The notes under the pieces were generated by a model. It saw nothing but the letters and a program-made list of their open reading frames with translations, searched no databases and was not told where the DNA came from. The translations under genes were made by a program, and so were the position numbers. This document shows positions 7,687 through 9,645 of a stretch of 63,984 bases of DNA, piece by piece; position 1 is the stretch's first letter, and the number at the start of each line of letters is the position of its first letter. This DNA is from Carcharhinus longimanus (lineage: Eukaryota): contig JASCQW010000105.1 in the NCBI GenBank assembly GCA_030264375.1, positions 55,362,921 to 55,426,904 on the forward strand, given 5' to 3'.

Positions 7687-7805
7687 GTTTACACCCTACG
7701 AGTGGTACAATCCCCACCCGTGCAATCCTGATTCAGATGTGGTGGAAAACAATTTTACTTTACTAAATAGTTTCTGGTTTGGAGTTGGAGCTCTCATGCA
7801 ACAAG
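7687..7805 (+). CDS. GRIK1: GRIK1 (GluK1) exon: M1-M2 loop and M2 pore loop containing the Q/R site
   Basis: ccacag|G TTT ACA CCC TAC ... ATG CAA CAA G|gtacat. Translates (R)[39 protein letters not shown](G). 119 bp, and the phase matches the next exon. Too short for the ORF track. Confidence 0.97.
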
Positions 7806-9269
7806 GTACATAGGTCACACATCATTCCTACACACATCCCACAGTGTGCTGGGGGCCTTTGTGCTTGGTAAGCTCCATCCTCAGCAACTATGCTCCATAC
7901 TGTAAAACCTGGCTGACATTAACAAGAATAATGGTGAATAGTGCTGAGATAGGTACATTTTATTGGTGCAAAGATATATTCAACTACGAAAAATAACAAT
8001 GGATTCCTGACCGAGGAAAGGTAGGATTTAAAACTGAAAATGCAACATGTAGAAGATGTGTGACTTAGTGTACTAAAGGTTAAAGAGGATTCAAGTAATT
8101 GTAAAACCTGGTGAGGGTCAAATTTCATTTGGCGCAAAACATTTTGAGTACATCAGTGACTGATATGAAAATTATATATTGATATGCTTCAAAACTTTCT
8201 GATGGGAGCATGCCACATTTGCGCCTCTGTTTACATGGCTTAGTCAAATAGATCAAGTTTTAAGTGGGGGTAAAAGTTTCATATGGACAGAACTTCAATT
8301 TTAAATGAAATGAAATATTTTGTTATGAATGTATTTGAGTAAATAGCAACCAAATATGATCCATGAAAGAATATGAATGAAAAATGTGGACATTTCCTTA
8401 TATACCTTGGCTGTAAGGAAATAACTTCATTGCAGTTCTTCCCAAAATTTGATATTTTAGTTAACATCTGTCTGAAAACTACCATAAATATCATAGTTAC
8501 AATATACCATAAACAGAGAGAATAGCAGTTACCCTGAAACATAAGATATGCAACTACTGTTGAAAAGTTATTTAACACATGCAGTCCCTGCAACTGTAGA
8601 TATATTTCAAATTCTTCATAAATGACATGGGGATCTCTGACTCGAAAGTAGAGTTCCCATGATTTTTAGGAGGTTTTTGTGGCTCAGCTAGGACAGGTTA
8701 CCTGAGAAAATTGACCTCTGACAGGCAATCAAATAATTTTCAGCCCGTTTAGCTCCCATCATCCAATATATAAAAAATACCTAACAGCCTGTCAGCAATT
8801 GAAGAAGGAAAAAGATGGGTTAATATTTTAGATGTCAACCCTTCATCAGAACTCCTGTATATAAAATAAAACCTCGATATTATGAGTGAAAATGGATTCA
8901 CAGGACTTCAAGCAAATAGACAATGTGTAAATCAGGAATAAGATCACTTTTGATATTGTAAAGTGGAACTACAAAAATAATAATAAACATTATGTTTTGG
9001 GCTTGTATTTTACTGAAAATCTCAACAGCTTATGTTAGTGCTGCAAATTGTCAGCAAGCTATTATCTCTCATTCCAGTATTCTTAATTGTTTTCTTGCCA
9101 TCAGAATACATTTGCAATGACAGCTAAGAAGTAATTAAACTAAGTTTAGCCTGCAACCCCGCTGAACAATACTTCTGCAACCACAAACAAAGTCTCACTG
9201 GAATTAACAGCATGTTATAGTTTCAGGCATTTCTGGTCTGTTAAGGCTGAATTAAAAGAACATTATCAT

Positions 9270-9443
9270 CAGGTTTTACAGTATAGCATCTGTGTGTTTG
9301 TGATGGTTGCATGTGTATGTGTGTTGATGAAAGCTAGTTTATTTTCCTAACCAGGGTGGCTGGTAAACTGAATGTATAGCAGCCATGCATGTCAAACACG
9401 TTGGAGTTTACCATCATCCACAGCAAACTGTGGGATGTCGTGT
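9270..9443 (+). promoter_or_regulatory. Distal arms of auxiliary intronic RNA helices next to the Q/R editing duplex
   Basis: 9421-9438 pairs with 7834-7851 (17/18). 9402-9413 pairs with 7866-7877 (12 bp, one G:U). 9270-9284 pairs with 7897-7911 (15/15). All are antiparallel and nested. Confidence 0.85.
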
Positions 9444-9622
9444 CTGATAGTTGCCACTACCTTGGATACATGACAGTCAGCCCCAACCAGGCTCTGCTTG
9501 TCTTCTTAAAGAGATTCTTAAACAATTGTCAATGCGAACTTGTGGTACCTGTGGATGTAAGTTCATCATGCTTAACTCCTACTAATTATTGCAAAAAAAA
9601 CATTGAGTTTTCTGTATGGAAA

Positions 9623-9645
9623 GTCTGTGGTCTTTGCATGAGAGC
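9623..9645 (+). promoter_or_regulatory. Editing-site complementary sequence (ECS) for the GRIK1 Q/R site
   Basis: ttgcatgagagc (9634-9645) is the exact reverse complement of exonic gctctcatgcaa (7790-7801). Pairing extends with G:U pairs and bulges over 7804-7815 / 9623-9633. It lies ~1.83 kb downstream, similar to the ~1.9 kb spacing known for mammalian GluK1/GluK2. Confidence 0.88.

Follow-up and report, generated by a model that had tools for sequence, protein, structure and literature searches.

A probable kainate-receptor Q/R editing fold, shared with GRIK2, in the GRIK1 intron of Carcharhinus longimanus

Which strand of the intron pairs with the Q/R codon of this shark kainate-receptor gene, serving as its editing-complementary sequence (ECS)? 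The window, the whole 63,984-nucleotide stretch analysed, contains a Q/R exon (7687-7805) whose translation reads FTPYEW...GALMQQ, with the Q/R codon CAA at 7799-7801. This genomic Gln codon lies 6 nt before the donor (GT, 7806-7807) in the kainate-receptor pore exon, and the following intron spans 7806-12332 (4527 nt). A protein search of the same genome returned five matches, the studied exon and four paralogs. The intron start matches the edited human GRIK1 context at +70/+71 (PMC8257547) and the mouse GluK1 letters in a scrambled figure text (PMC5654063), while one paralog locus (L001) matches the human GRIK2 edited contexts at +41 and +93 (PMC8257547). Because of these human edited-context matches, which are matches of sequence, the studied gene is assigned to GRIK1 rather than GRIK2 or GRIK3, and L001 to GRIK2. 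Exon 13 of human GRIK1 also has 119 nt (PMC8257547). The exon peptide and the intron-context match thus uphold the original prediction that GluK1/GRIK1 with a Q/R editing architecture lies here.

Further GRIK1 exons are observed on the plus strand at about 28880-29095 (ISTYEKMW...) and 37810-38060 (...SDVEQ). At the GRIK4/5-type loci of this genome (L003 and L004) no intron follows the QQ codons; the Q/R exon continues, and no ECS-bearing intron is present there. Assembly gaps occur at 2994-3752 and in six runs of 100-145 N, none of them in the studied intron; the N run also gives rise to artefactual long open reading frames at 2839-3929. The features discussed below are collected in Table 1.

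Table 1. Features of the GRIK1 Q/R region and of the GRIK2 paralog; positions are those of the window unless another contig is named.
Feature	Position	Strand	Basis or remark
GRIK1 Q/R exon, 119 nt	7687..7805	+	translation; candidate edited A = A7800
5' arm of conserved Q/R stem (exon end and donor), partner 9458-9491	7773..7808	+	co-folding, GRIK2 comparison
H2 5' arm, downstream editing-inducer stem (EIE)	7830..7854	+	homologous to mouse GluK2 DSS
H3 5' arm	7866..7877	+	human homologous positions +70/+71 edited
H4 5' arm, 15-16 bp and 5 bp past bulge	7890..7912	+	folding, p about 0.5
11-nt direct repeat of H4 5' arm, alternative partner of 9270-9280	8100..8110	+	folding, p 0.3-0.4
H4 3' arm	9269..9289	+	complementarity
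H3 3' arm	9402..9413	+	paralog introns without match
H2 3' arm (EIE)	9418..9448	+	conserved with GRIK2 paralog and mouse GluK2 DSS
Conserved ECS (likely), 38/39 identical to GRIK2 paralog	9458..9496	+	paralog alignment, co-folding
Short paralog-conserved segment, can pair with Q/R exon acceptor 7679-7690; candidate upstream stem	9536..9547	+	folding, paralog alignment
H1 3' arm, perfect 12-bp complement of Q/R segment	9623..9645	+	GRIK2 without counterpart
Pyrimidine tract and YAG (AG 9691-9692), candidate cryptic 3' splice site	9676..9692	+	matched by GRIK2 YAG +685
Second paralog-conserved block, candidate anti-ECS	9699..9731	+	29/34 identical to GRIK2 +697..+730, E 0.001
Following GRIK1 exon, end approximate, peptide ends TMTFFK	12333..12580	+	sequence
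GRIK2 locus L001	G000:C27, Q/R A about 29676718, ECS 29676318-29676356	minus	paralog search

The original prediction placed four nested long-range helices between the exon end, the proximal intron and a distal block, and all four are reproduced at those positions: H1 (7790-7801/9634-9645, 12/12 Watson-Crick), H2 (7834-7851/9421-9438, 17/18 paired), H3 (7866-7877/9402-9413, 11 Watson-Crick pairs and one G:U) and H4 (7897-7911/9270-9284, 15/15 paired). With helices of at least 12 bp and at most one G:U counted, dinucleotide shuffling of the intron produced a nested chain of four in 0 of 1000 trials and a chain of three in 1 of 1000, so that H2-H4 are beyond chance even without H1. Co-folding directs the exon end to 9458-9491 and not to the H1 distal arm. 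The resulting bulged stem, 7773-7808/9458-9491, directly continues H2 and had not been part of the prediction.

A genome search with 9418-9496 yields a single other match, in the GRIK2 intron (84% over 79 nt, E 1e-13), and no ECS block is found in the GRIK3, 4 and 5-type loci (scores of 19-21, compared with 73 for GRIK2). Helices and register agree between the GRIK2 and GRIK1 ECS stems, both at -32.5 kcal/mol. The stability of the duplex is unexceptional, with -33.9 for exon:ECS against a best of -33.7 ± 2.5 in shuffled introns (n = 30); because of this, the assignment stands on conservation and on contiguity with H2, not on energy. From this comparison, the ECS is likely 9458-9496, about 170 bases upstream of the H1 distal arm. 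We consider it highly probable that the conserved Q/R editing fold of kainate receptors is present in this intron, with 7773-7808 paired to 9458-9491 instead of H1, and that ADAR likely converts A7800.

Within the conserved stem, A7800 has no partner and lies in an internal loop of 3x4; the predicted pairing 7802-7808/9458-9464 buries the donor. The suggestion that the donor is masked therefore holds in so far as it lies in predicted double-stranded RNA, but the mask is this pairing and not H1. An extension of H1 across the donor, also put forward, would require several G:U pairs and bulges and has a mean pair probability of at most 0.07. In the mouse Grik2 fold, compared by eye with the scrambled text of the figure, the strand facing the Q/R exon reads like 9467-9496 (PMC5654063). 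Judging from the spacing, the adenosine at 9468, in the loop, is likely the counterpart of human GRIK2 +2054, an edited intronic position conserved to chicken and zebrafish (PMC4053846).

An additional helix, between the paralog-conserved segment 9536-9547 and the acceptor region 7679-7690, comprises 12 bp with two G:U pairs in GRIK1 and 13 bp in GRIK2; its pair probability is 0.86 in GRIK1 (3' end at 9600) and only 0.07 in GRIK2. An alternative upstream pairing, 7723-7737/9706-9720, is present in GRIK1 only. An Rfam search of 7711-9694 returned two weak matches (E 0.32 and 0.44), far below the gathering score.

H2 is separated from the Q/R stem by an internal loop (7809-7829/9445-9457). The mouse GluK2 DSS letters in Fig. 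S4 of PMC5654063 align with both H2 arms, an alignment that identifies H2 as homologous to the downstream editing-inducer stem published for GluK2. The H2 arms differ between GRIK1 and GRIK2 with the pairing kept, a comparison of two paralogs to which mouse and human contribute figure and table text. For H3, the human GRIK1 positions +70/+71, in the context of the 5' arm, are A-to-I edited at 38% and 26% in brain (PMC8257547). Editing of this counterpart fits a duplex there in humans, and the G:U pair of H3 turns into A:U when the human 5' arm, taken from the published context (PMC8257547), is set against the shark 3' arm. An inducer-type role, as had been proposed for the stems next to the editing site, is supported for H2 and H3. 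H4 has no sequence match among the paralog introns, and it competes with an 11-nt repeat at 8100.

The view that the arms are not derived from transposable elements is likewise borne out, no repeat family being matched in the genome searches. The segment 9250-9500 gave two matches (itself and GRIK2), and 9560-9690 and 7806-7960 gave one each, counts that are no proof of rarity since the search passes over very common words. A transposon origin of H4, raised by its TA-flanked appearance, was rejected: the 11-mer occurs three times in the window, always in this region, and belongs to no family in the genome searches.

GRIK1 and GRIK2 share the ECS and the inducer stem, and GRIK3-5 lack them; the fold therefore likely predates the GRIK1/GRIK2 duplication, as judged from the paralogs of this genome. 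The ECS lies at +1658 to +1696 from the site in GRIK1, and at +362 to +400 in GRIK2; in the reporter that Daniel et al. built for GluK2 (PMC5654063) the distance is 1885 nt. Of the ancient architecture originally proposed, the ECS and inducer stem common to both genes are retained, but the conserved spacing is not (+362, +1658 and 1885 nt). Deep conservation of kainate-receptor Q/R editing is partly known already, with the zebrafish GRIK2 Q/R site 86% edited (PMC4053846). The whole Q/R editing fold of GRIK2 fits within about 400 nt of a 5.25-kb intron, a compact natural substrate with the EIE at +323 to +349 and further stems formed by +90 to +112 with +283 to +306.

The predicted state of the region changes with the 3' end of the transcript. 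In partition-function folds of the natural GRIK1 sequence, the Q/R:ECS pair probability is 0.86-0.99 at a 3' end of 9520 and 0.99 at 9600; H1 prevails when the fold stops at 9665 (0.66-0.83), and Q/R:ECS is back at 0.74-0.92 when it stops at 9760. From 9810 on, the ECS pairs with 9699-9731 (0.98), and H1-H4 and the Q/R stem are all lost, as they also are in the minimum-free-energy fold of 7686-9800. GRIK2 behaves similarly, with Q/R:ECS at 0.96-0.99 for ends from +420 to +650 and pairing of the ECS with the homologous block at 0.96-1.0 from +760. Equilibrium folds of about 2 kb are unreliable and end-dependent and show only that these states are close; because the outcome depends on the 3' end, whole-region folds cannot choose between them. 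A 30-nt inverted repeat, 8094-8123/9779-9808 (77% complementary, core 8109-8120/9782-9793), dominates equilibrium folds that reach 9810 and is not nested with H2-H4.

The block 9699-9731 is colinear with the ECS between GRIK1 and GRIK2. In both introns the ECS finds its strongest partner in this block, at -40.8 and -39.2 kcal/mol, whereas the exon reaches -34.1 and -35.2 kcal/mol; over all calculations the ranges are -38 to -41 and -32 to -35 kcal/mol. Among 40 shuffled 1.5-kb stretches the lowest energies were -34.4 and -32.6 kcal/mol. We tentatively suggest that 9699-9731 is an anti-ECS, common to GRIK1 and GRIK2 since their duplication, that mimics the Q/R exon, brings editing to a close and unmasks the donor. 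Such an element would be a timer coupled to transcription, with the editing stem formed first and the exon displaced by the anti-ECS 200-300 nt later, which would close the editing window and release the buried donor. The anti-ECS may also gate a poison exon, with a stop after 15 codons in GRIK1. In GRIK1 the block is also complementary to exon 7723-7737.

A somewhat unlikely alternative is that the block is conserved because a cryptic (poison) exon begins there or a protein binds it; its fit to the ECS would then be incidental, the block deriving from a partial copy of the Q/R exon. In both paralogs a pyrimidine tract and YAG precede the block, and the block is similar to the exon end (in GRIK1 with 20 identities, 3 mismatches and 4 gaps; in GRIK2 with 32, 2 and 10). 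The GRIK2 YAG at +685 ranks top of the 174 YAGs in its intron; the acceptor-like YAG of GRIK1 was judged by eye, an upstream-AG filter having removed it from the top list. Rare cryptic splicing is also reported within the human GRIK2 intron (PMC8257547). However, the ECS fits the block better than it fits the exon, with 13-14 uninterrupted base pairs against pieces of 5-7 bp, a fit that would not be expected to arise as an exon copy drifts. Moreover, the three rows given for human GRIK1 at this coordinate (1216 canonical reads) list no junction into the intron, and the human GRIK2 acceptors reported there (+1885 and +2579) are without established homology to 9692 (PMC8257547). The human GRIK2 cryptic cassette (+2579 to +2622) was considered as a homolog of the acceptor at 9692 and set aside, homology not being demonstrable (PMC8257547).

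Donor-like sequences are also present downstream of these acceptors. In the GRIK2 paralog two donor-like motifs, GTAAGA near +766 and again near +786 (counted from the Q/R adenosine), lie downstream of the YAG at +685 and could delimit an 80- or 100-nt frameshifting cassette that would include the anti-ECS block. In GRIK1 a donor-like CAG/GTACAT at 9939, with an intronic hexamer identical to that of the Q/R exon donor, might be where a cryptic exon that begins at 9693 ends. The open literature, to which our search was confined, yielded no description of an anti-ECS or competing ECS structure, or of a GRIK2 cryptic exon.

With the main ECS at 9458-9496, H1 could still be a lineage-specific second element, a transient competitor or a back-up ECS that tunes editing. 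We regard this as unlikely. Its duplex is close in energy to the conserved Q/R stem (-30.2 and -32.5 kcal/mol), it is present as a single copy in the genome, and the folds predict that it takes over for a time when transcription has reached about 9665. A perfect 12-bp helix over A7800 arises in only 20 of 3000 shuffles (0.7%), but this is a post-hoc statistic, and a 12-bp helix somewhere in the 170-nt arm (7760-7930) occurs in 71 of 1000 (7%). Most likely H1 is a chance helix or a late competitor, and deleting 9623-9645 would probably leave editing intact.

ADARs prefer a 3' G next to the edited adenosine. The Q/R codon is CAA here and CAG in the GRIK2-5 type exons of this genome as well as in human GRIK1 (PMC8257547); lacking the 3' G, the shark site may be edited below the mammalian level. 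It is nevertheless quite improbable that, with the fold conserved, GRIK1 Q/R is little or not edited in this species owing to CAA. Low GRIK1 editing does occur in some mammals (rat 1/8 reads, cow 13% of 68, opossum 0/2; PMC4053846), but the ECS and inducer stems are intact here, CAA still recodes to Arg, and human GRIK1 editing reaches 57-65% (PMC8257547). The adenosine-deaminase domain PF02137 gives 23 matches on several contigs of this genome, a count that pools any ADAR1/2/3, ADAD and ADAT. By title, no study of GRIK editing in sharks was found in the open literature.

The model first proposed, with H1 (9634-9645) as the functional ECS and A7800 paired to U9635, is very improbable: it can draw on the perfect 12 bp, the low chance figure, the comparable duplex energy, the dominance in folds ending at 9665 (0.83 and 0.66) and a distance of +1835 close to the 1885 nt of mouse GluK2 (PMC5654063), but the H1 distal arm obtains no more than a background score at any of the four paralog loci (20 for GRIK2), its pair probability drops to 0.05-0.06 once the transcript reaches 9760, its helix crosses the conserved acceptor helix, and the 38/39-conserved block 9458-9496 is left unexplained. 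Overall, the prediction had the right system and three right stems, with the wrong ECS.

The core of the system is textbook and mostly known, and what we describe is likely a shark-type version of the known long-range GRIK1 editing fold. The mammalian GluK2 substrate comprises an upstream stem, a Q/R stem with the ECS 1885 nt away and a downstream EIE stem (PMC5654063). The shark fold resembles it in the sequences of the ECS and of the DSS/EIE (H2), in the order of the stems, in a site 6 nt from the exon end and in a donor inside the stem. It differs in belonging to GRIK1, in an ECS at +1658 to +1696, in the codon CAA, in the extra perfect helix H1 and in the extra stems H3 and H4, which have no sequence match in GRIK2. 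With mammalian GluK1 it shares the exon peptide and length, an intron of similar size (4527 and about 4245 nt) and recognisable H2 and H3 5' arms in mouse and human, the H3 arm being edited in human. The mammalian GluK1 EIE is given as 73 nt, 27 bp and 70 nt from the site (Table 1 of PMC5654063). In contrast, the published mouse GluK1 fold (Fig. S5j of PMC5654063, whose scrambled text carries labels only to 520) seems to pair the site with the proximal intron, and as far as these labels go the long-range partners of H2-H4 seem to be missing from it. Since that fold seems to lack the distal arms, the long-range GluK1 model may differ from what is in print. A 1996 study by Herb et al., reportedly on the mammalian GluK2 Q/R substrate, may already show part of the long-range GluK1 model. 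The GluA2 (GRIA2) Q/R hairpin with its EIE is alike in the ADAR recoding of a pore Q/R codon through an intronic ECS and an inducer stem; unlike the kainate-receptor fold, it has another sequence and structure and is short-range, and it probably evolved at least partly separately (PMC9479739).

On the preferred reading, with 9458-9496 as the ECS, H4, H3 and H2 would zip first while the distal arms are being transcribed, and these inducer stems would shut the 1.35-kb loop and attract ADAR. Next, the Q/R stem would stack on H2, holding A7800 in the 3x4 internal loop, and the 5' splice site would stay buried in this stem until editing has had its chance. ADAR would convert A7800 to inosine, and CAA (Gln) would be read as CGA (Arg).

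These observations would make the Q/R editing fold of kainate receptors older than the duplication that gave GRIK1 and GRIK2. For GluK1, where the inducer stem in print seems to be drawn from a short local fold, they provide a concrete model with long-range pairing, and they point to the GRIK2 gene of this genome, with its ECS at +360, as a naturally compact substrate. Furthermore, the conserved strand 9699-9731 could switch off the editing stem. If true, such an anti-ECS would bear on how the partial and regulated editing of GluK1 and GluK2 is set and on how a donor buried in a duplex is released.
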